NCBI GenBank assembly: GCA_021783355.1
Contig: JAJXTZ010000003.1
Coordinates: 1 to 41,018, forward strand
From: a bacterium
Lineage (GTDB): Bacteria > Elusimicrobiota > Elusimicrobia > UBA1565 > UBA9628
Direction: 5' to 3'
Length of the DNA stretch: 41,018 nt
A model generated the notes under the pieces. That model had not been told where the DNA came from and did no database searches. It was given only the letters and a program-made list of their open reading frames with translations. This document shows positions 2,926-22,045 of this stretch, in pieces; positions within the stretch are counted from its first letter, which is position 1, and each line of letters opens with the position of its first letter. A program made the translations under genes and the position numbers.

Positions 2926-2948
2926 CAGAGGGTCGTCCGCATGCGCCG

Positions 2949-3758: not shown

Positions 3759-3762
3759 GGGG

Positions 3763-4251
3763 TCAGCTCTGGACCTTGTCCACCAGCGCGAAGGTCATCG
3801 TGGCCTCGGCGGCGAGCTTGCCGTCCACATACGCTTCGCCGCGGAACTTGCCGGCGCGGCCCAGGCGCAGGATCTCGATGTGGTGCTTAAGCACGCAGCC
3901 GGGCAGGACGGGGCTTCGGAACTTGGCCTCGTCGATGCCCATGAAGAAGGCGACCTTGCCCTCGATGCCGCCCTTGGAGAGCAGCATCGCGCAGGCGGTC
4001 TGCGCCATCGACTCCACGATCAGCACGCCCGGCATCACCGGCTGGCCGGGGAAGTGGCCCTCGAAGAAGTGCTCGTTGGCGGTCACCATCTTGGTGCCGA
4101 CGCAGTACTTGTCCTCCTGGATCACGTCGATCTTGTCGACGAGCAGGAACGGGTAGCGGTGCGGGATTGCCTTCTTGACGCCGGCTGTGTCCAGCGAGCG
4201 GACGGGGGCGGCGGCGAACGGATTCGTGGTCGCGGTGGTGTCGGTGCTCAT
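3763..4251 (-). CDS. fabZ: 3-hydroxyacyl-ACP dehydratase FabZ
   Basis: IPHRYPFLLVD, FFEGHFPGQPVMPGVLIVESMAQ, KFRSPVLPG. Confidence 0.96.
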   Translation of the reverse strand: MSTDTTATTNPFAAAPVRSLDTAGVKKAIPHRYPFLLVDKIDVIQEDKYCVGTKMVTANEHFFEGHFPGQPVMPGVLIVESMAQTACAMLLSKGGIEGKVAFFMGIDEAKFRSPVLPGCVLKHHIEILRLGRAGKFRGEAYVDGKLAAEATMTFALVDKVQS

Positions 4252-5138: not shown

Positions 5139-6214
5139 CGAGCCTTCTCCTGGGGGGCGGCCTCGCCGCCCGTCCCGAGCTTCTTTTCCAACGCCTTCAG
5201 GCGCTCGACGATCTCCGGGAGCCTCCCGTAGAGCGCCTGCAGCTTGAAGGCCTCGCGGTGAGGGCGGCCGGGAGAACCGAAGAGGGTGGTGCGCGGGGGC
5301 ACGTCGCTCATCACGCCGGTCTGGGCCGTGATGATCGCGCCGTCGCCGATGGTCAGGTGACCGGCGACGCCGGCCTGCCCGGCCAGGATCACGTTGTTGC
5401 CCACGGTCGTGGAGCCGGCGATGCCGGTCTGCGAAACGACGAGGCAGTCGCGGCCGATCTTCGCGTTGTGTCCGAGCTGGACCAGGTTGTCGATCTTGGC
5501 GCCGGGCCCGATCACCGTGGAGCCGAGGGTCGCGCGGTCGATGGTCACGTTGGCGCCGATCTCGACGTCGTCGTTGATCACCACGTTGCCGATCTGGGGG
5601 ATCTTCGTGTGGCGGCCCGTCTTGCGGTCGGTGGTGAAGCCGAACCCGTCGGAGCCGATCACCGTGCCGGAGTGGACGATCGCGCGGGCGCCGAGCACGC
5701 ACTCCTCGCGCACGACGACCTGTGGGTAGAGGAGCGCGTCGCGCCCGATCTTGGCGCCGCGGCCGACATAGACCTGGGGCAGCAGGGTCGCGCCGTCTCC
5801 GATCTCCGCTCCAGCCTCGACGACGCAGAAGTCGCCGACGCGCACGCCCTTGCCGAGGCGCGCTCCAGGGTGGACGGAGGCCTTCGCGCTGATCCCCGCG
5901 GGGATCTCGGCGCGCTGGGCGGCGTCCACCAGGCCCAGCAGGACCGCGAAGGCGGCCTGGGGGTCCGCCACGACGACTTTGGCCTTGGCCGCGCACGGGG
6001 CGTCGGCCGCCTGGGGCGGGACCAGCAGGCAGCCCGCGGGGACCTGCGCGGCGGCGGCCGCGTACTTCATGTTGTGCAGGGAGGCGGCGTCCTTCGGGCC
6101 GGCCCCGGCGACCTCGCTGACGGCCTCGATCACGAGGCTCTTGTCGCCGACGACGCGGCCGCCCACCAGCGCGGCGATCTCGGCGACGGTCTTGGGCTCG
6201 GGAAGCGGCATCAT
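5135..6214 (-). CDS. lpxD: UDP-3-O-(3-hydroxyacyl)glucosamine N-acyltransferase
   Basis: Hexapeptide repeats, [43 protein letters not shown]. Confidence 0.95.
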
Positions 6215-7086
6215 GGCGCGGGGCTCCGTTCCAGTTCGGCGAGGACCTTGTCGGTCAGGTCCATCGCGGGATGTCCGTAGAGCAGAGACGATTTGTCGAT
6301 GACGACGCTGACGCCCTCGCGCTTGGCGACCGCGCCGATGGCGCGGTAAAGGCGGGCGAGGACGCGGTCGGTCTTGCGTCCCTCGGCGGCGAGGAGATCC
6401 TTGTCGGCGCCGTCGTGGACCTGCGAGAGCTCGGTCTCCTTGGAGGCGATCTCCGCCTGCAGGGCCAGGATCTTGGCGTCGAGCGCGAGGAGCTGGTCGG
6501 CTTTGCCCTTCGGGGGGGCGGAGGCCGCGGGCGACGCGGCCGCGGCGCTGGAGACGGCGACGGGCGCCGCGGCGGCGGGCGCCGTCGCGCTGGACGCGGA
6601 CGGGGGCGCCATCGGCGCGGAGACGTCCGGGGTCATCCCCGGGAGGGCGAGGGCGCCGGTGGAGAGCGCGAGGGCGGGCGCGGAGGAGGCGGCGACGGCG
6701 TCGGGCGCGGCGGGCGTGGAGACGGACACATCTGCGGGAGCGGGCGCGGCGGCGGTGGAGGCGGCGATGGGAGCCGGAGCGGCCGGGACGGCCGGGGTCT
6801 CCGGGGCCGCGGCCAGGGCCGCGCGCTCGGCGCGGGAGGCGTCCAGCTCGCGCCCGAGTTTCAAGAGCTCGGCCTTGCGCAGGTTGACGCGCTCCTCGGC
6901 CTGGCGGATCAAGTCTTGAAAGCCCTCCTTGGCCTTCTGGGCGTCGGGACTGGAGTCGAAGAGGCGCTGCATGTCCACGAAGCCGACGCTGCCGCTCTCG
7001 GCGCGGTTCTCCTCCAGGGAGAGCTCGATGGCGCGCACCGGGGCGGCCAGGAGCAGGACGGCGAAGGCGGCGAGGATCGTTTTCAT
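6211..7086 (-). CDS. skp: OmpH/Skp-family periplasmic chaperone with a long Ala/Pro/Ser/Thr insertion
   Basis: Start MKTILAAF (ATG 7086, TGATG overlap with bamA). Signal peptide, [10 protein letters not shown], coiled coil and C-terminal [26 protein letters not shown]. Canonical position between bamA and lpxD. Confidence 0.85.
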
Positions 7087-9569
7087 CAGAAGAGAGGACC
7101 GAGGCCGAAGTTGATCTGGTAGAGCTTCTCGCCCGGGCGGTGATTGAGGCCGTAGCCGTAGTCGAGGCGGATGGGGAAGGCGGGCGTCACGAAGCGCAAG
7201 CCCAGGCCGACGTCCGACTTGAGGTCCCGGGTGTCTCCGCCCATGCGCAAGGTCATGTCGCCGGGCGTGTTCCAGGCGCCGCCGATGTCGAAGAACGCGA
7301 CCAGCTTGACGATGCTGCGGTGGTGCTCGCGCGCGAGCGGGGCGCCGAACTCGAGGTTGGCGACATCGTAGATCGTGCCGCCGTTCGGGAAGCCGGCCTC
7401 TCCGGACGGGGAGTAGCCGCGCAGGGAGTCCTGCCCGCCGATGTAGAAGCGGTCCTGGACCGCCACGCTCTTGGAGCGGCCGAACTCGGTGATGTAGCCG
7501 CCGCGGTTGAACATCGACAGCACGAACGGCCACTCGCCCCAGTTGAACATCGTCCAATGGGCCTGGTTCGACACGTATGGCTTGAAGAAGTCGATGTCGC
7601 CCATCAGCGGGCCGCCGGACAGCTGGACCCCGATGGAGTTGCGCGTGCCGTGGGTCGGGTCCCAGATGCTGTCGCGGGTGTCGCGCGCCAGCTCCGCGCC
7701 GAGCAGGGATTGGACGCTGGTCCCGGGCGTCAGCGCGCCCTGGAAGTCGACGTTCGGGTCGATGCCGTCGATGGCGATCTTCTGCAGGGTGTAGGTGAAG
7801 TTCAGCTGGTACTTGTCGTCCTGGAAGCGGGGCCCGACGCGGATGCTGCCGCCGGTCCGGTGCTCGGTGTAGGCGGCCAGGTCGCCCTGGAACGGGTTGA
7901 TGCGGCGGGTGTGGAACGCGTCGAAGCCGAGGCTGATGGGCTTGTCGTCCACCCAGGGGGTGGTCCAGCTCACCGAGTAGTCCTGCACGCGCTTGCCGAA
8001 CGACCACTGCAGGGACACGCGCTGGGCGCGGCCCAGGAAGTTCAGGTGCTGGACGGACAGGGTGCCGATCAGTCCGTCGATGGACGAGTAGGCCGCGCCG
8101 GCGGTCAGCATGCCGGGCTTGCCCTCGGTCACGTCGAAGTCCATGTCCACCTTGTTCGGGTCCTCGGCGGACGGCTGGAGGTCCACGTTGACCTCGTCCA
8201 TGAAGCCCAGGTTCATGATCTTCTCGCGGCTCTTGCGCACGCGCGCGGCCGAGAAGCGCTCGCCGGGCTTGACGATGATCTCGCGCTTGATCACGTAGGT
8301 CTTGGTGGCCTTGTTGCCGTCCACGTCCACGTGGTCCACATAGGAGACCGGGCCCTCGACGATGTCGAAGCGCACGTTCATGCGGTCGGTCTTGGGATCG
8401 AACGACTTCTCGGGGATCACGCGGGCGCGCAGCCGTCCCACGTCGGCGTAGAGCTCTTGGACCGAGCGGATGGTGTCGTCGAACTGGCCCTGGTTGAAGA
8501 CCTTGCCCGGCCGGTAGTCGACCGCGTGGTAGAGCTCGGAGGAGGTCAGGACCAGGTACCCGGAAAAAGTGGTCTCGCCGAACCGGTACGAGCGGCCCTC
8601 GTCGACGCCGAGGGCGATCGAGATCCGGGACTTGTCGGGAGAGAGGGTCACAAGCGGCGTGCTCACGCGCACGTCCAGATAGCCGTTGTTCTTGTACTCG
8701 TCCACGATCTTCTGGACGTCCTCGTCCAGGTCCTTCTGGACGTAGACCTTCTTGTAGCGGTTCTTCATCAGCCCCAGCAGCTTCTTGGGCTTGAAGGCCT
8801 TGACTCCGGAGATCTCGACCAGGGAGATGCGGGACTTGGGGCCTTCCTGGATCTTGAAGGTCAGGTCCGCCTTCGACGCCGCGGTGTCGATCGAGACCGA
8901 GAAGTCCACCGTCGCGTCCAGGAAGCCCCTCTCGCGGTACTTGTCCACCAGCTTCTGGCGCGCCTCGTCGGCCTTGAACTGGTCGTACGGGTCGTATTCC
9001 TTGATGGAGATCGCGTCGGCCAGGACGCCTTTGGAGATGCCCTTCTCGCCCTCGAAGAGGATCTTGCGCAGGATCGGCTTCTCCTTGACCATGAAGGTCA
9101 GGCGCACCTCGCGGTCGGTGCCGGCGGTCTTGAGGAGGCGCTCGGGAACGGGCTTGTCCAGCAGGGTGAGCTCGGCGCCCACGCGCTCGAATTGGCCCAA
9201 GCCGAGCAAGGATTGGATGTCGCGGTCGAGGTCCGGCCGGTCGTAGAGGTCGCCTTTGCGGGCCTTGATCTGTCCCCGGATCGTGGACATGCGCACGTTC
9301 TTGAGGCCTTTGGCGTCGATGTCGCCCAGCACCCAGGGGCGGGGCACGATCCCGGCGGGCAGGCTCTGCGGCGCGGGCGGCGACCAGGGCGCCGTGGACA
9401 GCCCGGGGAGGGCGGCGGGGGCGGAGGACATGGACGGCGCGCCCGCGAAAGCGGAGGTCGAGGCCGCGGGCGGGGCCGCGTCCGGGACCGGCCCCGACGA
9501 GACCGTCTGGGCTGAAGCCGAAGACGCCAAAACCACCGCGGCGAGAGCGCTCATGAGGAGCCTTTTCAC
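7086..9569 (-). CDS. bamA: Outer membrane protein assembly factor BamA
   Basis: Signal peptide, low-complexity linker, five POTRA-like repeats each ending near a V/I-x-E-G/K segment, barrel with [13 protein letters not shown] (VRGF-like motif), C-terminal Phe. Confidence 0.96.
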
Positions 9570-9608: not shown

Positions 9609-9644
9609 GAAAAGAGGAGGGCCCCTTGCGGGGCCCGCCTTTCC
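9609..9644 (-). terminator. Rho-independent terminator downstream of ino1
   Basis: Minus strand reads GGAAAGGC-GGGCCCC-GCAA-GGGGCCC-TCCTCTTTTCC: a GC stem, GNRA loop and pyrimidine/U tail, about 35 nt after the ino1 stop. Confidence 0.75.
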
Positions 9645-9678: not shown

Positions 9679-11073
9679 TCAGCGCGCCGATTTGGCCAGG
9701 GACTTCTTCTTCGCCGCCGGCTTGGGGGCCGCCGCCGTCACCGGAGTCCCCTTCTCGGCGTCGTAGTAATCCAGGCCGGAGTGGTCCAGGACTTCCTCCC
9801 CCATGAGGATGCGCAGGGTGTTCTTGAGCTTCATCTGCTGGATGAACAGGTCGTGCTCGGGCAGCAGGTCCTCGCGGCATTGCGGGGACTTGAAGAAGAA
9901 GGACAGCCACTCCTGGATCCCCTTGAGCCCCGCGCGCTTGGCCAGGTCCAGGAAGAGGACCAGGTCCATCGCGATGGGCGCCGCCAGGATGGAGTCCCGG
10001 CAGAGGAAGTTGATCTTGATCTGCATCGGCATGTCCATCCAGCCGCGGATGTCGATGTTGTCCCAGCCTTCCTTGGCGTCGCCGCGGGGCGGGTAATAGT
10101 CGATGCGGACCTTGTGGTGGAACTTGCCGTAGAGGTCCGGGTAGCGGCCGGGCTCCAGGATGGTGTCGAGCACCGACATCTTGCTCTTCTCCTTGGTCTT
10201 GAAGGAGCCCGGGTCGTCGAGGACCTCGCCATCCCGGTTGCCCAGGATGTTGGTCGAGTACCAGCCGGTCAGCCCCAGCATGCGGGCCTTCAGCATCGGC
10301 GCGATCGTGGTCTTCATCAGGGTCTGGCCGGTCTTGAAGTCCTTGCCGCAGATGGGGGAGCCGGTCTGCTCGGCCAGTTCCACCAGGGCCGGCACGTCGG
10401 CCGACAGGTTCGGCGCCCCGTTGCCGTACGCGATGCCCGACTTGATGGCCGCGTACGCGTAGATCATCGACGGCGGGATCGCGGGGTCGGAGTCCTTGAG
10501 GCCGCGCTCGAGGGCCTCGACATCCTCATGGCAGGCCGCGTGCTCGGGCAGGATCTCGGTGGACCCGCACCACAGCATCACGACGCGGTCGCAGCCGTTC
10601 TTCTTCTTGAACGACTCGATGTCGGCGATCACCTGCTGCGCGAGGTCCCACTTGGACTTGCCCGTCTTCGCGTGCGTGGCCTTCAGGTTCTTCAGGTACG
10701 CGGGGTCGAACACGGCCTTCATCGGCTTGACGGCTTCCAGCTCCTTGCGGACCGGAGCCAGACGGTGCTCGTCGAGGACGCCGGCCTTGAGCGCGGCCGT
10801 CCACATGTCGTCGGGGAACAGGTCCCAGCCGCCGAAGACCAAGGAGTCGATCGAGGCCAGCGGCACGAAATCCTTGATCAGCGGCGAGCGGTTCTCGTAG
10901 CGCTTGCCGAGACGGATGGTCTGCAGCTGGGTGACGGAGCCCACGGGCTTGCCGAGACCCTTCTTGACGAGCTCCACGCCCGCGATGAAAGTGCTGGAGA
11001 CCGCCCCCATGCCCGGGAGCAGGACGCCGAGCTTTCCTTTAGCGGGCGGGATGCGGTTGTCGTGCTTGTTCAT
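9679..11073 (-). CDS. ino1: Inositol-3-phosphate synthase (myo-inositol-1-phosphate synthase)
   Basis: GMGAVSST, FGGWD, WCGSTE, NGAPN, GKDFKTGQTLMKT, STNILGNRDG, DYYPPRGDAKEGWD, CRDSILAAP. AGGAG RBS upstream. Confidence 0.95.
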   Translation of the reverse strand: MNKHDNRIPPAKGKLGVLLPGMGAVSSTFIAGVELVKKGLGKPVGSVTQLQTIRLGKRYENRSPLIKDFVPLASIDSLVFGGWDLFPDDMWTAALKAGVLDEHRLAPVRKELEAVKPMKAVFDPAYLKNLKATHAKTGKSKWDLAQQVIADIESFKKKNGCDRVVMLWCGSTEILPEHAACHEDVEALERGLKDSDPAIPPSMIYAYAAIKSGIAYGNGAPNLSADVPALVELAEQTGSPICGKDFKTGQTLMKTTIAPMLKARMLGLTGWYSTNILGNRDGEVLDDPGSFKTKEKSKMSVLDTILEPGRYPDLYGKFHHKVRIDYYPPRGDAKEGWDNIDIRGWMDMPMQIKINFLCRDSILAAPIAMDLVLFLDLAKRAGLKGIQEWLSFFFKSPQCREDLLPEHDLFIQQMKLKNTLRILMGEEVLDHSGLDYYDAEKGTPVTAAAPKPAAKKKSLAKSAR

Positions 11074-12235
11074 GTTCGTTGACTCTCCTGAGGTACAGCA
11101 TGATCCCGAAATAGAGCAGCCCGCCGATCGCCGCGGCCCACAGGAACTCGTAGACGCAGTCCACGAAGGCGAGGAAAACCAGAAGATAGATGAAGTCGCG
11201 CTGGGCGAGCATGTTCTCGAGGCGGGCCAGCCGGGTCTCGAAGCCGCCGAGCGCGGGCTCCTCGGTGACGCCGGCCTCCGAGCGCGCGCCCGCGGCGCGG
11301 AGGGCCAGGCGGTGGCTCCAGGCGGTCCAGGCGGAGACGAAGACGCCGAGGTCGGCCACGGCGGCCAGCGCCAGCGTGTGCGGGCCGTTGCGGCCGAGCC
11401 AGAAGCCGACGCCCAGGCAGGTGAAGAGCGCGAGGTGGACGACGTTGTCGCCCCAGAAGTCGAGGTCGCTGCCCAGCGGGCTCTCTTGGAAGCGAACGCG
11501 GGCCAGCTCCCCGTCGCAGCCGTCCAGCACGGAGTGCAGCCAGACCAGCAGGGCGCCCGGCACGTACCACGCGCGCGACGGGCCCAGGAACAGGGCGGCC
11601 CCGATCAGGCCGAGCAGGGTGCTGAAGACCGTCATCGCGTTGGGGGTCACGCCGGTGTCGAGGAGGAGGCGCGAGACGGACAGCGAGATGTGACGGTCGA
11701 AGTTGCGGGCCATGAAGCCGTCCTGGCTCTTGGGGCCGGTGGCCATCAGCCAATCCACCGTCTCCTCCCCGCCGACCGGAGCCTCCAGGCGCCGGTAGGT
11801 CCCGGGGGCCAGGACCTGCTTGGACCGGGTCGTGCTCTCGTCGCGGGAGACGACCGCCTGGATCACGCCGAGGCCCGCGTCGTCCTCGTAGGAGACCGAC
11901 TGGCCGAAGGACTGGCGCGCGACGTGGGCGAGGGCGTCCACGCGCACGAAATGGTCGCCGGAGAGTCCCAGGTAGGGCGGCTCGCAGGCGACGAGCGCGT
12001 CGCCGTCCCGGGACACCCAATGCACCGTCAGGCCGGGCGGCACGCGCAGGCCGGCGCGCAGGGCGGGGTCGGGCTCGTGGGTGCCGACCCAGACGCTCGT
12101 GATCCCGGCGCGCGCGGCGGTGAAGAGCTGGCGCTCGAGCACGCCGAGGCCGCCCGCCTTCAGCCACATCAGGGACGGGTGGGGGACCCAGAGGATCGCG
12201 CGCGGGATGCGCGCCGGGGCCGCGGCCTCAGGCAT
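11039..12235 (-). CDS. CDP-alcohol phosphatidyltransferase family protein with a degenerate N-terminal nucleotidyltransferase-like domain (IPCT/DIPPS-like architecture)
   Basis: Signature LDGCDGELAR...GSDLDFWGD, TPNAMT and DGFMARNFDRHIS, followed by TM helices. The N-terminal KAGGLGVLERQLFTAARAGITSV resembles the NTP-transferase fold but lacks GxGxR. Overlaps ino1 by 35 nt. Confidence 0.85.
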   Translation of the reverse strand: MPEAAAPARIPRAILWVPHPSLMWLKAGGLGVLERQLFTAARAGITSVWVGTHEPDPALRAGLRVPPGLTVHWVSRDGDALVACEPPYLGLSGDHFVRVDALAHVARQSFGQSVSYEDDAGLGVIQAVVSRDESTTRSKQVLAPGTYRRLEAPVGGEETVDWLMATGPKSQDGFMARNFDRHISLSVSRLLLDTGVTPNAMTVFSTLLGLIGAALFLGPSRAWYVPGALLVWLHSVLDGCDGELARVRFQESPLGSDLDFWGDNVVHLALFTCLGVGFWLGRNGPHTLALAAVADLGVFVSAWTAWSHRLALRAAGARSEAGVTEEPALGGFETRLARLENMLAQRDFIYLLVFLAFVDCVYEFLWAAAIGGLLYFGIMLYLRRVNEHEQARQPHPAR

Positions 12236-13214
12236 GGGCCGCCTCCCGCGCGCCGTAGGCCGCGCGGATCGTCTCCAGGCAGAAGCCGGCCTCGTCGAGA
12301 TTGGCGCCGCGGTCCGCGCCGGCGCACTCGGCCGCGAAGGCGGGCCACATCGCCGCCAGCCAGTCGGGGTGGGCGGACCCTCCCGAGAGCCTCTCCGGGA
12401 AGCGGACCGTCTCCTCGTGCCCGCCGGAGCGCAGGATCAGCTCGTCGTCGCGCAATTCGGCGGCTCCCTTCTCGCCGACGACCAGCGCGGAGTTCGAGCG
12501 TTCGGCGGCCTTCCAGGTGAGGAAGATCGTGCCGCTCGCGCCGGGCGCTTCGAGCAGGACCGTCGCGGTCTCGTCGACGGAGTCCGCGGGGGTCAGGACG
12601 GCCGAGGACAGGCGGGCCCCGGCCCCCAGCAGGCGCCGCATCAAATACAGATTGTGCCAGCCGTGGTCCACCAGGATGCCGCCCCCGGCCACCGCCGGGT
12701 CCTTGCGCCAGTCCCCGGGCAGCGCCGAGACCGACGGCCGCGTGCGCAGGACGCGGATCTCGGCGTGGCGCACCGCGCCGAGGGCGCCGGAGGCCGCGGT
12801 CTTGAGCAGGAGCGACCACTGCGGAGAATGGGCCCAGTTGTTGACCGAGTAGGCGCAGACGCCGCGCTTGGCGGCCTCGGCGCGGATGGCGGCGTACGCC
12901 TCCGGGTCCAGAGTCAGCGGCTTCTCGCAGAGGACGTGCAGCCGCGCCTTGAGCCCGTCCAGCACGGCGCCGGCGTGGAACGACGGCGGGGTGGCGACGA
13001 TCAGGGCTTCCAGGCCCTTCTCCTTGGACAGGAGGTCCTTGTGGCCGGCGTGGACGCGGACTCCGGGCAGGAGCTTGGCCGCCGCCTGGCGGCGCGATTC
13101 CGTCGCCTCGGCGACCGCGACGATCTCGACCCCGAGCCCGCGCAGGGCGGGCAGATGGGCGTGCTCGGCGATCGCTCCGAAACCGACGAGGCCGACGCGG
13201 CGGGGACCGCTCAG
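12228..13214 (-). CDS. Gfo/Idh/MocA oxidoreductase (inositol-dehydrogenase-like), probable CTG start
   Basis: The frame is open upstream of the ORF-track start (12965) and encodes the Rossmann motif RVGLVGFGAIAEHAHLPAL, then VATPPSFH, HVLCEKPL, GGGILVDHGWH. The only plausible start is CTG 13214, with GGAGG 8 nt upstream. Confidence 0.85.
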   Translation of the reverse strand: MSGPRRVGLVGFGAIAEHAHLPALRGLGVEIVAVAEATESRRQAAAKLLPGVRVHAGHKDLLSKEKGLEALIVATPPSFHAGAVLDGLKARLHVLCEKPLTLDPEAYAAIRAEAAKRGVCAYSVNNWAHSPQWSLLLKTAASGALGAVRHAEIRVLRTRPSVSALPGDWRKDPAVAGGGILVDHGWHNLYLMRRLLGAGARLSSAVLTPADSVDETATVLLEAPGASGTIFLTWKAAERSNSALVVGEKGAAELRDDELILRSGGHEETVRFPERLSGGSAHPDWLAAMWPAFAAECAGADRGANLDEAGFCLETIRAAYGAREAAHA

Positions 13215-14554
13215 AGGCCGCGCCTCCGGCTCACGGCGTCGAGGGACTCGTCGAGAAGGGCCAGGCCCTTCAGGGCGTCCGTCTCGGAGATCACCAGCGG
13301 GGGGTTGATGCGCAGCGACGGGTTGTAGGCCATCGTGAGGACGCCGCGCTTGAGGCCCTCCTCGAAGATCTCGCGGCAGACCGCCTTGTCGAGCGGCTTG
13401 CCGTCCTTCGGGTTCACCAGGTCCACGCCGATCATCAGGCCTCGGCCGCGGACCGAGCCGATCGCCGGGCGCTTCGCCTTCATCTCGGTCAGGCGCTTGA
13501 GCATCGCGGCGCCGACCTTGGCGGCGTTGTCGACGAGCTTGTCGCGCAGGATCACCTGCAGCGTCGCGTCGCAGGCGGCGGAGGCCAGCGGGTTGCCGCC
13601 GTAGCTCGACGAGGAGCCCGAGGGGTTCGCCCAGGGCTTGGCGGAGGCGAGCTCGGTCGAGGCGACGACGCCGGAGACGGGGAAGCCCCCGCCGAAGCCC
13701 TTGCCGATCGTCATCATGTCGGGGATCACTCCCTCGTGGTCGCAGCCGAACATCTTCCCGGTGCGGCCGAAGCCGGTGATCATCTCGTCGGAGACGAACA
13801 CGGCGCCGATCTCCTTGGCGAGCTCACGCACGCCCTTGAAGAAGCCGGCCGGCGGGATCACGTTGCCGTTGGTGCCTTGGACCGGCTCCATGATGACCGC
13901 GGCGACCTGTCCGGTGGTCTCGCGCTTGATCTTCTCGCGCAGGAACTCCAGGCAGTGCGCGCCGCAGTCGTGCTCGCCCTTGGTCCCCAGCGGGCACTTG
14001 CGCGCGTCGGGGTACGGGGACAGGTGCAGGCCCGGCATCATCGCGCCGTAGTTGTTCTTGAAGCCGTCGTTCAGGAGGCCCATGACGCCCATCGTCTTGC
14101 CGTGGAAGCCGCCCCAGAACCCGATCACCTCGTACTTGCCGGTCTTGGACTTGGCCAGGCGCAGAGCGGCCTCGACGGCCTCGGCGCCGGAGCTGTAGAG
14201 CTGGCAGCGGTCGAGCCCCTTCGGGGTCACCGAGGCCAAGGTCTTCAGGAAGTTCAGGCGGTGCGCCGAGGTGAAGGAGCCCACCGCGGTCTTGGCGGCC
14301 TGCTCGGCGACGGCCTTGGCCCAGTCCGGGTGGCCGTAGCCCAGCGACGCCACGCCGATGCCGGCGACGAGGTCCAGGTAGGTCTTGCCGTCCAGGTCGC
14401 GGATCGTCGCGCCGGAGCCGGACTCGACGGCGATCTGCGCGTAGAGCGCGATCGTCTGCAGACCGGGGGCGATATACCCCTGCTCCTCGTCGAACAGGGC
14501 CTTCGATTTGGGTCCGGCGGAATAAGGCGTCTCGGCGAGAGTCTGCGGGGTCAT
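13211..14554 (-). CDS. Class III (ornithine/GABA-AT-like) PLP-dependent aminotransferase
   Basis: Start MTPQTLAE (ATG 14554). Motifs YLDLVAGIGVASLGYGH, SGAEAVEAAL, GFHGKT, MEPVQG, DEMITGFGRTG, PDMMTIGKGFGGG (PLP Lys), VRGRGLMIG. Confidence 0.93.
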   Translation of the reverse strand: MTPQTLAETPYSAGPKSKALFDEEQGYIAPGLQTIALYAQIAVESGSGATIRDLDGKTYLDLVAGIGVASLGYGHPDWAKAVAEQAAKTAVGSFTSAHRLNFLKTLASVTPKGLDRCQLYSSGAEAVEAALRLAKSKTGKYEVIGFWGGFHGKTMGVMGLLNDGFKNNYGAMMPGLHLSPYPDARKCPLGTKGEHDCGAHCLEFLREKIKRETTGQVAAVIMEPVQGTNGNVIPPAGFFKGVRELAKEIGAVFVSDEMITGFGRTGKMFGCDHEGVIPDMMTIGKGFGGGFPVSGVVASTELASAKPWANPSGSSSSYGGNPLASAACDATLQVILRDKLVDNAAKVGAAMLKRLTEMKAKRPAIGSVRGRGLMIGVDLVNPKDGKPLDKAVCREIFEEGLKRGVLTMAYNPSLRINPPLVISETDALKGLALLDESLDAVSRRRGL

Positions 14555-14556
14555 GG

Positions 14557-15399
14557 TCAGGCCTTCCTTGCGGCCGCCTGGCGCAGGCGGGCGCGCAGGC
14601 GGCGGGCGATCTGGACCGAGGCCTCGGCGCGCACGCGCGCGAAGCTCGGCCACGAGTTGATGTCGATGATATAAATCTTTCCATCGGGAGCGACGATCGC
14701 GTCGCCGCCGTAGACCTCCAGGCGGACGCACGAAGCGGCGAGCTCCGCCTGCGAGGCCAGGTCCTCCACCTCGAACGGCAGGCGGCGGGCGACGGAGGGG
14801 TCGTGATAGAACCAGGTGAACCACTGGCCCGGGCCGACGCCGTAGAACTTGATCAGGTCGCCGTCGATGTGGCGCTGAACGGCCATGTCCTTGATCTCGC
14901 GGCTCTCGAACTCGCGGCGGATCTCCCGCGCCTCGTCCCAGTCGGGCGCGAAGACGACGTCGTGAGTGCAGGTGTTGTGCACGTCGCCGCGCTTGAGCCA
15001 CCAGCCGCCCTCGGCGTCGAAGGCCGGGGGGCGGGCGTTGGCGTCGGCGGAGGTGCGCCGCACCTCGGTCGCGGGGTAGGACAGGCCGGGGGTCGCGGCG
15101 AAGGACTCCAGCATCCGGGTGCGGTAGCAGCCCAGGACCGAGTCCGCCGGGTTGACGAAGACGGCCCCGGTCTTGGGCTCCAGGGTCTTGAGCCGCATCA
15201 GGCGGGGGTAGGTCTCGCACATCGGCACGATGATGTCGAATCCGGCCAGGTCGGCCCCGTCGAACGCCTCCGGGGTCATCAGGACCGTCTCGGTCTTCAG
15301 GATCGAGAGCTGGTCCATCACGGCCTTGAGGATCAGGGCGTCGTCCGTCTCGCGGTTGGGCGAGTTCTGGACCTCACGGAAGATTCCGAGCGCTTTCAT
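14557..15399 (-). CDS. Uncharacterised ATP-grasp-like protein
   Basis: Start MKALGIFREVQNSPNRETDDALIL (ATG 15399). Motifs FVNPADSV, WWLKRGD, VQRHIDGDLIKFYGVG and YGGDAIV...YIIDINSWPSF resemble the RimK/ATP-grasp C-terminal D...(E/D)xN motif. Confidence 0.7.
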   Translation of the reverse strand: MKALGIFREVQNSPNRETDDALILKAVMDQLSILKTETVLMTPEAFDGADLAGFDIIVPMCETYPRLMRLKTLEPKTGAVFVNPADSVLGCYRTRMLESFAATPGLSYPATEVRRTSADANARPPAFDAEGGWWLKRGDVHNTCTHDVVFAPDWDEAREIRREFESREIKDMAVQRHIDGDLIKFYGVGPGQWFTWFYHDPSVARRLPFEVEDLASQAELAASCVRLEVYGGDAIVAPDGKIYIIDINSWPSFARVRAEASVQIARRLRARLRQAAARKA

Positions 15400-16106
15400 C
15401 GTGTCTTCTCCGTCGCCAGGTAGGCGTCCGCGGCCGCCACGTCCTCCGGGCGGTCCACGTCCAGCGTCTTGGACAACGCGACTCCGGCCACGCGCGTCCC
15501 CGAGGAGACGAGCGCGCGCCAGAAGTCGCGCAGCCGGCCGTGCGCCGCGGCCTCGGGGAGGCGCGCGGCGGCGGCGCGGGTCAGGTAGTAGAGCCCGCCG
15601 GTCACGCGGCGGCGGGTGCGGGCGTCGTCGCCCACGGCGGTCACCAATCCGGCCTCGTCGAGGTCCGCCCAGAGGGGCTTCTCGTCGTCGACGTGGTCCG
15701 TCAGGGCCAGGCCGGCCTCGGCGCGCGCGGCGCGGCACTCGTCCCAGAAGCGCCGGACGTCGGTGGCGGGCAGCAGAGCGTCCGCGGTGCTGACCATGAA
15801 ATCGTCGCCGCGCTCGGCCAGGCGCCGCGAGACCAGGCGGAAGCTCTCGAACGACGAGGCGGTGTCGGCGCTGACGAAGTCGAAGGCGAGGTCCGGGAAG
15901 GCGGCCGCCAGGCTGGGCGGGATCGCCCCGCCGTGTCCGTTGGTCAGGACGGTGAGCTCGCGCGCGCCCGCCGCGGCCAGGCCCGACGCGACCCAGTGGA
16001 TCAGCGGCCGCCCGGCGACCGGGACCAGGGGCTTGGGGAGGCCCGGATGGCTCGCGGCGAGGCGCGAGCCCCGGCCCGCGGCGATGACGCCGGCGCGCAG
16101 GCTCAT
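15396..16106 (-). CDS. Nucleotidyltransferase (NTP_transferase family), putative inositol-phosphate cytidylyltransferase
   Basis: Start MSLRAGVIAAGRGSRL (ATG 16106, ATGA overlap). Motifs PKPLVPVAGRPLI, DDEKPLW, TGGLY, DVDRPED. Confidence 0.88.
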   Translation of the reverse strand: MSLRAGVIAAGRGSRLAASHPGLPKPLVPVAGRPLIHWVASGLAAAGARELTVLTNGHGGAIPPSLAAAFPDLAFDFVSADTASSFESFRLVSRRLAERGDDFMVSTADALLPATDVRRFWDECRAARAEAGLALTDHVDDEKPLWADLDEAGLVTAVGDDARTRRRVTGGLYYLTRAAAARLPEAAAHGRLRDFWRALVSSGTRVAGVALSKTLDVDRPEDVAAADAYLATEKTR

Positions 16107-16768
16107 GAGAGGAGGGCCTCCAACTCGACGACGGAACGCACGGTCCAGTCCTGGCCTGCCGCGGGAGGCTCGGGATCGATGCTGACCAGGGCCGTTTTCA
16201 TGCCCGCCGCGACGGCGCCCCTCATGTCGCGCTTGACCGAGTCGCCAACCATCATGCACTCGGCGGGAGCGGCGTCCAAGGCGCGGGAGGCGTGGAGGAA
16301 TATCCCCGGCTCGGGCTTGACGACCCCGAGGACCCCGGAATCGGCCACCACGGAGAAAAGGTCGCGCAGGCCTTCGGCGCGAAGGATCCCGTCGAGGTTC
16401 CCGTAGAAATTCGACACGACCCCGAGCCGGTAGCGCGCCGTCAGGCGCTCGAGCACCGGGCGCAGGCGGCGGAACTGCCCGCGGCTGTCCGCGGCGAAGC
16501 GTCCGGCGATCGCGCCGGCCAGGGGCGCGCGCTGCGGCGCCAGCGCGGCCAGGACATCGCCGACCTGGAGGCGCAAGGTCTCTTCCAGGTCCAATCCGGC
16601 CAACGCGTGACGGGCGGGGAGGGCGTCGTCGGAATCGTAAAAGGCGCGGTCGAAGCGGTCGCGGGGGAGGTCCACGCCGTTCTCTTTATAGATCGGGTAG
16701 AAGCGTTCCAACCATGTGGACCCGTCGGCGTCCAGCGTCCCGCCGTAATCGAAGAGGACCGCCTTCAT
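16103..16768 (-). CDS. HAD-superfamily hydrolase (phosphatase)
   Basis: Motif I FDYGGTLD, motif II VVSN, motif III KPEPGIF, motif IV MVGDSVKRD. Confidence 0.92.
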   Translation of the reverse strand: MKAVLFDYGGTLDADGSTWLERFYPIYKENGVDLPRDRFDRAFYDSDDALPARHALAGLDLEETLRLQVGDVLAALAPQRAPLAGAIAGRFAADSRGQFRRLRPVLERLTARYRLGVVSNFYGNLDGILRAEGLRDLFSVVADSGVLGVVKPEPGIFLHASRALDAAPAECMMVGDSVKRDMRGAVAAGMKTALVSIDPEPPAAGQDWTVRSVVELEALLS

Positions 16769-17015: not shown

Positions 17016-18176
17016 ATGGCTGAATCGAAAACGAAGGCGAAAACGGACGCGCTGAAAGCGCGATTGGGCGCCCTGAAGGGTCTGGGGGAATTGTTCCTCG
17101 GTCCGCGGGACGTCGTGGCCGTCGACGTCGGGAGCTACGCGGTGAAGGTGGCGCTGCTGAAGCAGGAGGGCCCCTTCCTGCAGCTGAAAGCGTGGGGCCA
17201 TCTTCCCATCGGCGCCAAAGCCGAGGCGTCTCCCGACGAGCGCCGCGCCGCGGTCGTCAACTCCCTGCGGGCGTTCCTGATCGAGAAGGGCGTCAAAGTC
17301 CGCGAGGCCGCCACCTCCCTCTCCGGCAACGCGGTGATCGTGCGCTACGTGAAGTTCCCGCGCCTGACCCGGACCGAGCTGCAGGCCACGCTGGCCACCG
17401 AAGCCGAGCCCTTTATCCCTTTCGACATCAACGAAGTCCAGCTCGGCTTCCACATCCTCAGCGAGATCGTCGAGGAAGGCCAGAAAAAGATGGAGACCGT
17501 CCTGGTCGCCGCGAAGAAGGACCTGGTGTCCGCCCGCCTGGACGTCCTCCAGGGGGCGGGCTTCACTCCGGCGATCGTCGACGTGGACAGCTTCGCCCTG
17601 GAGAACGTCCACGAGAAGATCCGCGACCCCAAGGAGGGGCCGGGGGCGACCCTTTACCTTAATATCGGCCACATGGTGACCAATCTCTCCATCATCGAGA
17701 ACGGGGTGACGCGCGTCGTGCGCGACGTGTTCATCTCCGGGCAGACGATGACCAAGGCGATCGCCAAGGCCTTCCAGTGCGAGCCCGCGAAGGCCGACGA
17801 GCTCAAGAAGATCTTCGGCGTGATCGTGGACCCGGCCGAGAAGGAGAAGGCCCTGGCCGACGGCAACCGCGAGGCGCTCGGCGTCTCCCAGGCCATCGGG
17901 CAGGTCGCGCGCGACCTGGTCGGCGAGGTGCACCGTTCGGTGGATTTTTACCTGTCCCAGGGTCCGGACCGGGCGATCGGCCGCATCGTCCTGTCCGGGG
18001 GCTCGGCTCGGACCAAGAACCTGGACAAGCACCTGGCCGGGGAGCTCAAGGTCCCGGTGTCCGTCCTGGACCCGTTCTCGTTCGTTCGAGGCGCGGAGAC
18101 CGTTCCGGAGGAGCTCCGGTCCTCCTTCGGAGTGGCGGTGGGACTGGCCCTGCGCCGCAACCGGGATTGGGAATAG
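17016..18176 (+). CDS. pilM: Type IV pilus assembly protein PilM
   Basis: Actin-like fold: VAVDVGSYAVKV, EAEPFIPFDINEV, VLVAAKK, IVDVDSFAL, LNIGH, EVHRSVDFY, LSGGSA, AVGLALR. Confidence 0.95.
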   Translation: MAESKTKAKTDALKARLGALKGLGELFLGPRDVVAVDVGSYAVKVALLKQEGPFLQLKAWGHLPIGAKAEASPDERRAAVVNSLRAFLIEKGVKVREAATSLSGNAVIVRYVKFPRLTRTELQATLATEAEPFIPFDINEVQLGFHILSEIVEEGQKKMETVLVAAKKDLVSARLDVLQGAGFTPAIVDVDSFALENVHEKIRDPKEGPGATLYLNIGHMVTNLSIIENGVTRVVRDVFISGQTMTKAIAKAFQCEPAKADELKKIFGVIVDPAEKEKALADGNREALGVSQAIGQVARDLVGEVHRSVDFYLSQGPDRAIGRIVLSGGSARTKNLDKHLAGELKVPVSVLDPFSFVRGAETVPEELRSSFGVAVGLALRRNRDWE

Positions 18177-18179
18177 GCG

Positions 18180-18728
18180 ATGATCAAGGTCAACCTCGTC
18201 CCCGCGGAGATCCTGGCCAAGGCGCGCCAGCGGCAGCTCCTGCTCCAGGCTTCCCTGTTGGGCGGCCTGCTGGTCATCGCGATGGCGCTGGTCTCGGTCG
18301 GACATTGGTTCGGCCTGCACCAGCTCAACAACGAGTACAAATACAAGGAATCCACCCTGCAGAAGCTCTCGGCGATCGTGTCCAAGGTGGAGGAGCTCGA
18401 GAAGGCGTCCAGCGCGGTGCGCGCCCGGCTGGGCGTCATCGACAGCCTGCTCAAGGGGCGCGCGTTCTATCCCCTGTTCTTGTCGGAATTCGCCGGCACC
18501 GTGCCCCCGGGCGTGACCGTCACGAACGTGACGACGGCCGTCCAGCCCGACGGGTCCTTGACGCTGGCCATCACCGCGACCGCCGGCAACAACGACGACA
18601 TCGCCGCCTGGCTGAGGACCCTGGGCGCCGACACCCATTTCTCGAAAGTGGAACTAGGGGCCGTCCACGCCAGCGGCAAGGACCGCTACGGATTCTCCAT
18701 CGGCGTCGGCTACGCGCTCAAGCTCTGA
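18180..18728 (+). CDS. pilN: Type IV pilus assembly protein PilN
   Basis: MIKVNLVP (INLLP-like motif), TM helix, coiled coil. Follows pilM. Confidence 0.9.
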   Translation: MIKVNLVPAEILAKARQRQLLLQASLLGGLLVIAMALVSVGHWFGLHQLNNEYKYKESTLQKLSAIVSKVEELEKASSAVRARLGVIDSLLKGRAFYPLFLSEFAGTVPPGVTVTNVTTAVQPDGSLTLAITATAGNNDDIAAWLRTLGADTHFSKVELGAVHASGKDRYGFSIGVGYALKL

Positions 18729-18729
18729 C

Positions 18730-19275
18730 ATGGCCATCAAACTCACGAAGGAACAGCAGCAGTACGCGGGCGCGGGAGCGATCCTGTTCGCCATGCTGGG
18801 CTTCGTCTACGTGAAATTCTTCTGGCTGCCGATCTCCGAGAAGAAGGACGCCCTGACCGACCAGATCCAGCAGATCGACGGCAAGATCGCCAAAGCCAAG
18901 GCCGAGGCCTCCCGGCTCCAGCGCCTGCAGGACGAGCTTTCCACGCTGAACCGGCAGGCCGGCGAGGCCGAGAAGCGCCTGCCCAAGAGCAAGTCCGTGC
19001 CGGACATTCTGGTGTCCCTGTCGCGCTTGGCCGACCGCTACCACGTCTCGATCATCAGCTTCTCCCCGGGCCCCGAGAAGGCCCAGCAGTACTTCATCGA
19101 GCTCAGCTATCCGATGACTGTCCTGGGCACCTATCACGACGTCGGGCGCTTTCTGGCCGCGATCGCTTTGGAGGAGCGCATCTACAACGTGCGCGGCATC
19201 ACGCTCCCCGCCCCGGACTCCTCGGGCCGGATGACGGTGACGTTCACTCTCCTCTCTTACCAGTACAAAGGATGA
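18730..19275 (+). CDS. pilO: Type IV pilus assembly protein PilO
   Basis: TM helix and coiled coil, LPKSKSVPDIL, GTYHDVGRFL, LEERIYNV. Confidence 0.9.
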   Translation: MAIKLTKEQQQYAGAGAILFAMLGFVYVKFFWLPISEKKDALTDQIQQIDGKIAKAKAEASRLQRLQDELSTLNRQAGEAEKRLPKSKSVPDILVSLSRLADRYHVSIISFSPGPEKAQQYFIELSYPMTVLGTYHDVGRFLAAIALEERIYNVRGITLPAPDSSGRMTVTFTLLSYQYKG

Positions 19276-19754
19276 CCGCCCTCCTCGCCGCCGCCCTGCT
19301 CAGCGTCTCCGCCGCGGCCGCCGCGCCGGCGCCCCGGCCCGCGCCCGCGGGGCCGGTCGTCTCGACCCAGGCCCTCGCGGGCCTGAGCCTGAGCACCTAC
19401 ACGGTCTCGACCCTGTACACCGGGGACCGGTACCGCGACCCGTTCCTGGCGTCCTCCGCCGGCGGGGCCCGGGTCGCGCGCCGGACGGAGGGGCCGACGC
19501 AGGTGGACATCCACTCGCTGCAGCTCCACGGCATCATGCAGGACTCCTCCAGCGCGTTCGCCCTCTTCAGCGCGGACGACGGCACGACCTTGATCCTCCG
19601 CGGCGGCCGTCTGTACGACCCCGCGAACAAGCTCGTTCCCGGCATCACCGGCCACATCTGGATCAAGCGCAGGCGCGCCGACCTGATCACGGCCGACAAG
19701 GACGTTCAGATTTACAGCCTCGGCGCGGCCGACGGCGGCGACGAGGCGAAATGA
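19272..19754 (+). CDS. pilP: PilP-like pilus assembly protein
   Basis: RDPF motif and LQLHGIM beta-domain, located between pilO and pilQ. Has a signal peptide but no cysteine or lipobox. Confidence 0.7.
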   Translation: MTALLAAALLSVSAAAAAPAPRPAPAGPVVSTQALAGLSLSTYTVSTLYTGDRYRDPFLASSAGGARVARRTEGPTQVDIHSLQLHGIMQDSSSAFALFSADDGTTLILRGGRLYDPANKLVPGITGHIWIKRRRADLITADKDVQIYSLGAADGGDEAK

Positions 19755-19786
19755 ACCGAGCCAAGGACGGCCTGCGGGAGACGACC

Positions 19787-22045
19787 ATGACCACGCGTGA
19801 CCTTTTGAAGAAGACGACGGCGGCGCTGCTCGCGGCGGCGCTGCTCGTCCCGCAAGGGGCCGTCGCCGCGGCCGCGGCCGAGGCGGCCGCCCCGGTCAAG
19901 AGCGCCGCGAAGCCCGCGGCGGTCAAGGCCGGCCCGGTCCTTGCCGTCTACGACGGCGTCGCGGTGAGCGACGACTTCGTCGCCGTCCGTCTGAGCAGCG
20001 CGGTGCCCTACAACAGCTTCCTGACCCGCACCCCTCCCCGCCTGGTTCTGGAGCTCCTCGACACCAGGCACGCGGCGAGGGTCCGTTCCGTCCCCGGCAA
20101 GGGCAAGTACCTGCTCCGCGTCCGCTCGGCGCAGTTCGAGCGCTCGCCGCGCATGATCACCCGCGTCGTGCTGGACCTGGCCCGCCTGGCGGGCTACAAG
20201 GTCGAGGCGATGAAGGGCGGCCTCGGCGTCCGGCTGATCGGCGGCGCGGACGAGGCCTCCGCGCCCGCTGCGGCGGCGAAGACGGCGGCCGCCCCGGTCG
20301 CCGCGCCGGAACCGACGGCCGCATCGCGGCCGGCGTCCATCCTGACGAAGCCGGCGCCCCAGCCGGCCGTCGCCCGCGCGCCCGCTCCGGTCCCCGCCGC
20401 CAAGCCGACGGCGGCCGCTCCGGCGATCGCGCCCAAGCCCGTGGCCGCCGCTCCCAAGCCCAAGCCCGCGCCCGCCGTCGCCCGCGCGGCGGCTCCCGCG
20501 CGTCCCGTCGTGAAGATCCCGGCGCCGGTTCGGGAACCCGCGGCCGCGGCGCCCGCGCCGAAGCATCCTCGCGACGGATCCGCGATGGCGGCGTTCCGCC
20601 GCGCCGGTCTCGTCGGGCGCATGAACACCGAGCTGGCCGCGGCCGTCCAGGCCGAGGACGCCAGCAAGGGGGCGGTCAAGATCCCGGCCGGGGACGATTC
20701 CAGTTCCGAGGGCGAGCGCCGGCTCGGCGGCCGCATCTACCGCGACCTGCTCAGCCGCCTGCCGAAGGACCGGGTCTCCCTGGACTTCGACAACACCGAC
20801 ATCCGCGACGTCCTCAAGCTGATGGCGGCCAAGGCGCGCATCAACATCATCTACGGCCCGGACGTCACCGGAACGCTCTCCCTGCACCTGACGCGCGTCC
20901 CCTTCGACGACGCCTTCCGCACGGTCCTGTCCATGATGGGGCTGACCACCGACCAGGTGGGCAGCAGCGTCCTGCGCGTGATCACCCCCGCGGCCCTGAC
21001 CGCGCAGCGCACCTCCGGGAGCGCGATCACGAAGGTCATCCCGCTCAACTACGCGAAGGCCTCGGACGTGAAGACGACCATCGACCAGGTGCGCACGGCC
21101 GAGGGGCGCACCGGCTCCTCGAGCGTGGACGCGAAGACCAACTCGATCATCGTGACCGAGTCGCTGGAGGGGCTGGCCGCCACGCAGAACCTCATCGCCC
21201 AGCTCGACCAGCGGCCGCGCCAGGTCCTCATCGAGGCCAAGCTCATCGAGGTCAACGAGAACTCCGGCTTCAACTACGGCATCCAGTGGGACGCCTTCAG
21301 CCAGGAGTCGGGCGCGATCGGCGGCAAGCAGGGCACCACGCTGATCGGATCGTCCGCGGGCCTCATCGGCCCGGCGCTCAACAACCCGCTCAACGGGAAC
21401 GCGATCCAGACCAACGTGACCGCGGCCGGCGGCGTCGGGGCCGGCGGCCGGGGCACCGGCGTGAACCTGGCCGCGGACAAGATCTTCGGCGCGCTGACCT
21501 TGGGCCGGATCACCAACAACTACCTGCTCAACGCGACCATCACGGCCGCGGCCTCGGAGGGCAAGGCCAAGGTGCTCTCGGACCCGAAGATTACCACCCT
21601 CAACAACCAGGCGGCCAACATCAACGTCACCACGCAGATCCCGTACGTGACCTCGAACGTGGCCTCGACCGGGGTGACGACCCAGCAGGTCTCGTACGTG
21701 ACGACCGGCATCCAGCTGACGGTGACGCCCAGCATCAACGCCGACGGGCGCATCCTGCTGCAGATCAACCCGAACGTCAGCCAGCCGTCGGTCACCGCCG
21801 CGGGCAGCTCGCTCACCGGCGCGCCGGCCGTGGACTCGCGCAACGCCAACACCACGGTCCTCGTGCGCGACGGCGAGACCATCGTCATCGGCGGCTTGAT
21901 CAGCGACAGCCTGCAGGACACCATCGCGAAGATCCCGCTCCTCGGGGACATCCCGATCCTGGGCTGGCTCTTCAAGAAAAAGTCCAAGACTCGCGTGCGC
22001 AACGAGCTGCTGATCTTCGTCACGACGCGCATCCTCCCCGACTGA
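19787..22045 (+). CDS. pilQ: Type IV pilus secretin PilQ
   Basis: Signal peptide, AMIN-like domain (PPRLVLEL, RSAQF, TRVVLDL), Ala/Pro linker, VSLDFDNTDIRDVL, QVLIEAKLIEV, GETIVIGGL, KIPLLGDIPILGWLF, ELLIFVT. Start 19787 has a GGGAG RBS; an alternative ATG is at 19751. Confidence 0.96.
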   Translation: MTTRDLLKKTTAALLAAALLVPQGAVAAAAAEAAAPVKSAAKPAAVKAGPVLAVYDGVAVSDDFVAVRLSSAVPYNSFLTRTPPRLVLELLDTRHAARVRSVPGKGKYLLRVRSAQFERSPRMITRVVLDLARLAGYKVEAMKGGLGVRLIGGADEASAPAAAAKTAAAPVAAPEPTAASRPASILTKPAPQPAVARAPAPVPAAKPTAAAPAIAPKPVAAAPKPKPAPAVARAAAPARPVVKIPAPVREPAAAAPAPKHPRDGSAMAAFRRAGLVGRMNTELAAAVQAEDASKGAVKIPAGDDSSSEGERRLGGRIYRDLLSRLPKDRVSLDFDNTDIRDVLKLMAAKARINIIYGPDVTGTLSLHLTRVPFDDAFRTVLSMMGLTTDQVGSSVLRVITPAALTAQRTSGSAITKVIPLNYAKASDVKTTIDQVRTAEGRTGSSSVDAKTNSIIVTESLEGLAATQNLIAQLDQRPRQVLIEAKLIEVNENSGFNYGIQWDAFSQESGAIGGKQGTTLIGSSAGLIGPALNNPLNGNAIQTNVTAAGGVGAGGRGTGVNLAADKIFGALTLGRITNNYLLNATITAAASEGKAKVLSDPKITTLNNQAANINVTTQIPYVTSNVASTGVTTQQVSYVTTGIQLTVTPSINADGRILLQINPNVSQPSVTAAGSSLTGAPAVDSRNANTTVLVRDGETIVIGGLISDSLQDTIAKIPLLGDIPILGWLFKKKSKTRVRNELLIFVTTRILPD

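Follow-up and report, generated by a model that had tools for sequence, protein, structure and literature searches.

In the window analysed here, a stretch of bacterial DNA 41,018 nucleotides in length, one gene encodes a 280-residue ATP-grasp protein that belongs to a real, widespread and unannotated family, which is a core enzyme of a published, though predicted, pathway for inositol lipids and whose members are most likely cyclitol kinases. In the specific form of this proposal, the protein would use ATP to phosphorylate the free inositol ring, here an amino-inositol, and so feed CDP activation, a reading that is given about an even chance of being correct. The kinase reading draws on co-inheritance with an NTP transferase, on gene fusions, on the neighbouring genes, on kinase-type residues, on a reduced number of phosphate anchors, and on a gap in the literature where a kinase is missing.

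The gene is the third of a seven-gene run whose junctions mostly overlap or almost touch, and which reads, 5' to 3', HAD, NTP transferase, ATP-grasp, class III aminotransferase, Gfo/Idh/MocA dehydrogenase, CDP-alcohol phosphotransferase and myo-inositol-phosphate synthase (MIPS). It is present in one copy in the window's genome, and GC at its three codon positions (0.65/0.47/0.95) follows a coding-type pattern. The first-pass annotation had described an open reading frame of about 280 residues coupled to the NTP-transferase gene, and this description was borne out: the motifs WWLKRGD (residues 133-139), QRHIDGD (175-181), GGDAIV (231-236) and IIDINSWPSF (244-253) are all in place, the start codon overlaps the NTP-transferase stop in an ATGA, and the aminotransferase ATG lies 2 nt past the ATP-grasp stop. 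The features of the run are as follows:

16103..16768, minus strand: HAD-IA hydrolase, first gene of the operon, a putative inositol-phosphate phosphatase (profile searches)
15396..16106, minus strand: NTP transferase, a putative cyclitol-phosphate cytidylyltransferase, with an ATGA overlap at either side (profile search, junctions, fusions)
14557..15399, minus strand: ATP-grasp protein of an unnamed family, a predicted cyclitol kinase, 280 aa (open reading frame, fold, residues)
14983..15003, minus strand: WWLKRGD, with invariant K136, the ATP-binding lysine of ATP-grasp proteins (ITPK1 K157)
14839..14859, minus strand: DLIKFYG, with invariant K184, which aligns with ITPK1 K199 and with an Arg in RimK/MptN ligases
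14641..14670, minus strand: IIDINSWPSF, the D246-x-N248 metal/phosphate motif, which aligns with ITPK1 D295/N297 and with E-x-N in RimK
13211..14554, minus strand: class III aminotransferase, optional module (profile search, neighbourhood counts)
12228..13214, minus strand: Gfo/Idh/MocA dehydrogenase, an optional gene that comes and goes with the aminotransferase and probably begins at CTG 13214 (profile search, neighbourhood counts)
11039..12235, minus strand: CDP-alcohol phosphotransferase with an N-terminal extension (profile search; nearest solved relative AF2299, E 1.3e-23)
9679..11073, minus strand: MIPS (profile search)
9619..9636, minus strand: terminator-like hairpin of 7 G-C pairs, 43 nt past the MIPS stop and ahead of bamA (a consensus match, from a scan that found 6 sites against 3.0 +/- 1.8 in shuffles)

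The start of the dehydrogenase is unusual, since no ATG, GTG or TTG precedes its Rossmann motif (window 13214-13200, minus strand); a CTG that overlaps the aminotransferase stop (CTGA) and has GGAGG 8 nt upstream is the likely start, and ORF callers shorten the gene to 245 aa. PDB searches with the NTP transferase, the dehydrogenase and the aminotransferase did not pin down their substrates, and a complex prediction for the NTP transferase with the ATP-grasp protein scored 0.00, a value that counts neither for nor against a contact.

From the gene, its fold, residues, neighbourhood, co-occurrence and fusions, all of which are observed, we infer every chemical step, ring position and product of the following route. 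MIPS would generate inositol 3-phosphate, the HAD enzyme would strip its phosphate, and the dehydrogenase and aminotransferase would replace one hydroxyl with an amine; the ATP-grasp protein would then re-phosphorylate the ring, the NTP transferase would generate a CDP-cyclitol, and the CDP-alcohol phosphotransferase would join the cyclitol to a lipid. In the Bacteroidales, where the amination pair is missing, plain myo-inositol would take the place of the amino-inositol as substrate, and the phosphatase-kinase pair would shift the phosphate to another ring position and/or permit the use of imported inositol. The predicted logic of kinase, CDP activation and CDP-alcohol transfer is that of Kennedy-type routes, which employ choline kinase, a cytidylyltransferase and a phosphotransferase. 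Known myo-inositol kinases, such as TK2285, belong to the ribokinase family, not to the ATP-grasp proteins, and those inositol kinases that do adopt the ATP-grasp fold are known from eukaryotes and Asgard archaea, according to PMC6900528 and PMC8024741. The CDP-inositol route of Rhodothermus, which proceeds through IPCT and BEPIS, differs in having no kinase or HAD gene in the summary given in PMC4587543. Since a direct path from MIPS to CDP-inositol needs neither a kinase nor a phosphatase, yet the cluster keeps both a soluble HAD and an ATP-grasp protein, the simplest reading would be dephosphorylation, optional oxidation and amination of the free ring, and re-phosphorylation immediately ahead of CDP activation; relocation of the phosphate to the 1-position would explain the HAD.

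The protein had at first been called an orphan, a label that no longer holds: 1165 of 4491 candidates are homologues, 875 clusters at 50% identity match the protein, and the close homologues that bear names come from Elusimicrobiota. Pfam and NCBIfam searches with the protein gave no family at cut-off, the best single-sequence matches being TTL in Pfam (E 0.071) and one at E 0.32 in the PDB, and in the open-licence PMC and bioRxiv literature no publication was found that treats the family or describes an ATP-grasp inositol kinase from bacteria. The ATP-grasp nature proposed from the motifs is confirmed by an AlphaFold2 model (pLDDT 96.8) that displays the three-domain ATP-grasp fold, and every one of the 50 matches listed by VIA-align is a protein of this fold, with ArgX at the top (Z 21.9, rmsd 2.8 A, 251 residues aligned) and with RimK (21.5), PPIP5K2 (19.6), potato ITPK1 (19.6) and human ITPK1 (19.4) among the others. 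Foldseek returned ArgX (E 7.7e-15) and the same mix of ligase and kinase families. The global fold cannot separate kinase from ligase and thus leaves the function undecided.

In a diverse alignment of 123 members, K136, G180, K184, Y186, G231, G232, D233, D246, N248 and P251 are invariant, and the basic linker residue R93 is present in 122, so that the catalytic features listed for ATP-grasp proteins in PMC4431377 (R93, K136, D233, D246, N248) are all present; positions so nearly unchanging argue for a working enzyme. The motif pattern is matched by 144 of 150 representatives, all 144 with D instead of E, and the aspartate at the usual glutamate position, which had been remarked upon in the window protein, is a real and invariant trait (123/123).

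The active site was compared with 20 eukaryotic ITPK sequences from a motif scan (3 checked with Pfam and 1 tied to human numbering) and with 20 RimK/MptN sequences. The profile alignment pairs R93, K136, K184, D233, D246 and N248 with ITPK1 R106, K157, K199, D281, D295 and N297, and K184 and D246-x-N248 are each found in all 123 members. RimK, in contrast, has R189 at the place of K184 and E260 at that of D246, as well as an R211-x-N213 loop that lacks a counterpart in the family; the Arg in question marks most amide-forming ATP-grasps, as stated in Burroughs 2015 (PMC4431377). The RimK/LysX/ArgX/MptN glutamate ligases (TIGR00768, PF08443) nevertheless provide the best overall fold and profile matches and share the size and domain layout of the family. 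A profile of the C-terminal half, built from 56 of the available sequences, places five ITPK chains of the PDB first (E 2e-4 to 2e-3), with 7drm (6e-3) and RimK (0.78) behind them; the full-length profile ranks the ligase 7drm first, whole-length hhalign finds RimK slightly nearer (E 2.1e-13 vs 8.9e-11 for ITPK), and 96 of the 123 members score higher on a purpose-built RimK HMM. In an atlas of protein clusters, the named clusters closest to the family include one of Asgard ITPKs (score 0.95, rank 9 of 30), with RimK clusters at 0.96-0.97.

Established profiles place the family outside each of these groups. The window protein is unmatched at cut-off by PF05770, which detects 9 of the 123 members at E<=0.05 (best 0.0022), and the PF17927 N-domain does not figure among the 25 families listed, out of 26, for the 123 members. 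On TIGR00768 the protein scores 11.8 bits against a cut-off of 143.4, and RimK-type profiles pick up 12 of the 123 at E<=0.05, with 0.0021 as the best value, and leave the window protein unmatched in a search of its own genome. In a quick tree of 41 rows, from which Asgard rows are absent, the 19 family, 11 eukaryotic ITPK and 9 RimK/MptN rows each fall on their own side of a branch (SH-aLRT 99, 100 and 98), the support being for the groups and not for their order. The CDC123/R2K clade has D/E-x-N, lacks the linker Lys and carries the first-strand Arg; the family shares only the D-x-N with it, having the linker residue R93 and a first-strand Lys, and R2K_3 matches 2 of 123 members (best 0.0017). 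CDC123 also carries D-x-N (PMC4431377) and is not known as a kinase, and D-x-N thus counts against as well as for a free-ring kinase. Resemblance to ITPK1 (PF05770 plus PF17927, including the Asgard LcIK) extends over the fold (Z 19.4-19.6, with 256 residues aligned at an rmsd of about 3 A), the matched ligands D281, D295 and N297 together with K199, and the association with MIPS; differences lie in the sub-threshold Pfam scores, identity of about 14%, and a lipid head-group operon. By its catalytic residues, the family would be a kinase-type ATP-grasp, but it does not belong to ITPK1.

In ITPK1, H167 and R212 (the most conserved) and K59 contact the inositol phosphate, in the account of PMC6900528. 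The equivalent of K59 is M60 in 119 of 123 members, that of R212 is mostly Y198, and the H167 column is variable (G 35, E 28 and D 19 of 123), with H146 in the window protein only, in a mapping taken from a profile alignment that has gaps near R212. Fewer phosphate anchors than in ITPK1 would fit a less phosphorylated substrate. The ITPK1-like inositol-phosphate kinase that had been suggested for this gene therefore survives in part: its catalytic motif is ITPK1-like and the kinase branch is favoured, while the loss of the three anchors and the separate clade make an enzyme of the ITPK1 type improbable.

Several points weigh against the free-ring kinase, among them the indecisive fold, the slightly higher whole-length similarity to RimK, the scores above the ITPK Pfam cut-off that RimK-like proteins from other bacterial loci attain, and the conserved residues R8, R137 and R257, which could bind a substrate phosphate. 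In addition, recombinant ITPK1s are reported in PMC6900528 not to phosphorylate free inositol, which keeps alive the unlikely alternative of an ITPK1-like inositol monophosphate kinase. Such an enzyme would convert the MIPS product to a bisphosphate, whose new phosphate would be activated by the NTP transferase and whose old phosphate would later be removed by the HAD, with amination taking place on the phosphorylated or CDP-bound ring. The shared catalytic residues, the three arginines, which could hold one phosphate, and the nearby Asgard cluster of the atlas agree with this scheme, as do the activity of ITPK1 on I(3)P1 and I(1)P1, which does not extend to free inositol, and the Asgard ITPK genes that flank MIPS genes (both from PMC6900528). 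Against it stand the lost equivalents of K59, H167 and R212, the equal or higher scores of the RimK atlas clusters, and the further kinase that a lipid made from imported free inositol would need.

The genomic context links the free-ring kinase reading to the CDP-activation step. Among 11 relatives of the window, 10 have the ATP-grasp gene right after the NTP transferase, and 6 preserve the order of all seven genes. GTDB genomes were scanned as well, with 594 loci confirmed and the best 80 analysed, which span Bacteroidota, Ignavibacteria, Acidobacteriota, Verrucomicrobiota, Methylomirabilota, deltaproteobacteria and others. The flanks of these best 80 of 594 hold a CDP-alcohol transferase in 70, an NTP transferase in 68, a HAD in 67, MIPS in 44, an aminotransferase in 38 and a dehydrogenase in 34, counts from neighbour HMMs that may also catch paralogues; in the 52 of them with at least 5 kb on either side, the first four are found in 50, 46, 49 and 31 loci, respectively. 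Clustering of the neighbours also detected PfkB-like genes in six of the best 80 of 594 loci, and such a PfkB-family kinase could perform salvage, a further point against the free-ring kinase. Fusions tell of the same partner: 14 of 15 long homologues are joined to an NTP-transferase domain and 1 to a class III aminotransferase, and among seven long representatives six are fused to an NTP transferase (one also to a HAD) and one to a CDP-alcohol transferase, two long proteins being common to the two lists. In 101 genomes of the family to which Phocaeicola vulgatus belongs, 63 carry the ATP-grasp gene, and those very 63 also carry the NTP transferase, although these genomes are kin and the counts are not independent trials. 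MIPS is present in 74 of the 101, including 57 of the 63 ATP-grasp carriers, and a PIP synthase of the BT_1523 type (B. thetaiotaomicron) in 18, only 2 of which carry the ATP-grasp gene. Within the window's class, a full-length ATP-grasp match turns up in 33 of 81 genomes, and 29 of these 33 have an NTP transferase at E<=1e-35; the four other carriers belong to one family, in which G064 has a diverged NTP transferase directly upstream.

The frequent NTP-transferase fusion would also suit some other ATP- or ADP-dependent step of the pathway, such as a reversible phosphotransferase that shifts phosphate between ring positions by way of ADP/ATP, a ligase forming an ester with the head group, or a protein that senses nucleotides as partner to the NTP transferase. 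This is considered improbable, despite the precedents of ITPKs, which are described as reversible phosphotransferases in PMC10765375, and of CDC123, in which a D-x-N ATP-grasp is found outside the kinases; the canonical catalytic positions (R93 in 122 and K136, D233 and D246/N248 in 123 of 123) suggest a working enzyme, and the neighbours of the ATP-grasp loci include no conserved acyl-donor gene.

The other half of the initial suggestion, an amide ligase that would acylate the amino-inositol produced by the dehydrogenase and aminotransferase, fares worst and is very improbable: although the gene sits immediately upstream of the aminotransferase in all 11 window relatives and in 37 of 80 wider loci (best 80 of 594), one fusion is to a class III aminotransferase, and ligases give the top fold and whole-profile matches, the family has neither the ligase Arg nor E-x-N nor the R211-x-N213 loop, and the aminotransferase and dehydrogenase are jointly absent from 31 of the 52 well-covered loci (and jointly present in 21; at least 5 kb of flank, from the best 80 of 594). 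When an aminotransferase orthologue was sought in five genomes whose loci lack the pair, none was detected in P. vulgatus and three others, while the fifth has the pair elsewhere in its genome; the core residues of the ATP-grasp pocket are identical with and without the pair. Bacteroidales have no amine to acylate, and the lipid reported for P. vulgatus is plain PI-DHC (PMC9246714), so that acylation of an inosamine cannot be the family-wide task. The ATP-grasp gene belongs to the core of the cluster and is tied by its context to the CDP-activation step, and the amination pair is an add-on. Position 62 was also considered as a substrate switch and set aside: where the aminotransferase is absent, 33 of 35 loci have Arg there, and where it is present, 49 of 49 have Glu/Gln, but only two changes occur on the tree and a single origin is possible, so that it is not independent evidence.

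The published pathway referred to above corresponds to what Heaver et al. (2022, PMC9246714) call the 'alternative' cluster, for CDP-inositol lipids, in Phocaeicola (Bacteroides) vulgatus and Prevotella. Its MIPS, NTP transferase, CDP-alcohol phosphotransferase and HAD all recur in the window's operon, which differs by the addition of the dehydrogenase and aminotransferase. In P. vulgatus ATCC 8482, a homologue 33% identical to the window protein (L091:7992-8843) lies in the order NTP transferase, ATP-grasp, CDP-alcohol transferase, LPG-synthase-like, HAD, MFS transporter, PfkB kinase (opposite strand) and MIPS, and would correspond to BVU_RS13100 if the numbering of its neighbours is followed. 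That study reads the HAD as a PI-DHC synthase, and reports PI-DHC for P. vulgatus and P. veroralis; the ATP-grasp gene is unmentioned in the article text, eight supplement files and the preprint text. For any organism, the alternative-cluster pathway is itself a prediction. What emerges is that the commoner inositol-lipid route of the sample (63 vs 18 of the 101 genomes) was drawn without its ATP-grasp gene. If a kinase does operate in this route, the HAD has to be read as a phosphatase and free inositol may be able to enter, and phosphorylation of the free ring by a bacterial ATP-grasp kinase would add an activity new to the fold. A homologue is at hand in P. vulgatus, a cultured and common gut species. 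Inositol lipids influence the fitness of gut Bacteroides and their resistance to antimicrobial peptides, and hardly any outside inositol is taken up by B. thetaiotaomicron, a species with the PIP route (both from PMC9246714).

A place for such a kinase exists in the published account of Tannerella forsythia, which, according to Megson et al. (PMC4587543), has no MIPS and builds its inositol-phosphodihydroceramide solely from imported myo-inositol; the same authors describe a BEPIS-like CDP-alcohol transferase of the CDP-inositol type and report neither an inositol kinase candidate nor an IPCT. The ATP-grasp family is a candidate that would fill this gap. Among the 120 matches listed and 9 clusters, none bears the name Tannerella, and Parabacteroides is present. 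Six of the 63 ATP-grasp carriers (G176, G184, G192, G206, G240, G248) lack MIPS, which is within expectation for incomplete assemblies. In G176 and G206 the ATP-grasp gene accompanies a PIP-type cluster whose usual MIPS position is empty, a combination that would suit a 3-kinase; G231 speaks against this, as its PIP cluster is also without MIPS but the ATP-grasp gene was not found in that genome. The PIP-type clusters (PAP2, PIP synthase, GtrA, PgpA) of these three genomes are located in G176:C24, G206:C8 and G231:C53 (L106, L113, L259), with no MIPS found genome-wide, and G176 holds both inositol lipid clusters side by side.

A broader scenario may be sketched tentatively, and is rather more doubtful than the kinase itself. 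The family would be a bacterial myo-inositol kinase on the ATP-grasp rather than the ribokinase fold, completing a Kennedy-type CDP-inositol route in roughly 60% of the sampled Bacteroidaceae species and letting organisms such as T. forsythia use dietary or host inositol for sphingolipids. In Elusimicrobiota and several other phyla it would phosphorylate an amino-inositol for an undescribed cationic head group, and it would represent a bacterial offshoot of the ligase-to-kinase transition that gave ITPK1.

Other bacterial ATP-grasp proteins of related type were observed. At L166 (599-1438 and 1386-2513, plus strand), a D-x-N ATP-grasp of 279 aa, whose gene overlaps the start of a MIPS gene, scores 43 bits on PF05770, above cut-off, and 42 bits on RimK, and is nearer to the present family by hhalign (E 5.6e-16) than ITPK or RimK are; it may represent a second ITPK-like lineage of bacteria with a link to inositol. 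A similar D-x-N ATP-grasp is fused to an APH-family phosphotransferase domain at L118:563-2626 (plus strand). In G054 (L258:3593-8612, minus strand), three RimK-like ATP-grasp genes above the PF05770 cut-off surround a mannitol-dehydrogenase-family gene and are followed by a transporter-like membrane gene; all three have Lys at the place of the ligase Arg, two are of the D type and one has E-x-N, and they perhaps form a polyol kinase cluster.

On other contigs of the window's genome, CDP-alcohol transferase is matched a second time, with 149 bits (G000 C173:13782-14519), and a membrane protein resembling LPG synthase scores 200 bits (C17:7032-8054); an LPG-synthase-like gene lies inside the cluster in 36 of 80 loci (best 80 of 594). 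Directly downstream of the operon, an outer-membrane run (window 1049-9569, minus strand) encodes BamA, Skp/OmpH, LpxD, LpxC, FabZ, an LpxA-like protein, LpxI and a second Gfo/Idh/MocA protein, which, beside lipid A genes, we presume may be GnnA-like; BamA follows the inositol operon in 6 of 11 relatives. Divergent from the operon is a run led by PilM (window 17016-22045, plus strand), by sequence a type IV pilus pilMNOPQ set, and PilM is likewise near the operon in 6 of 11 relatives.
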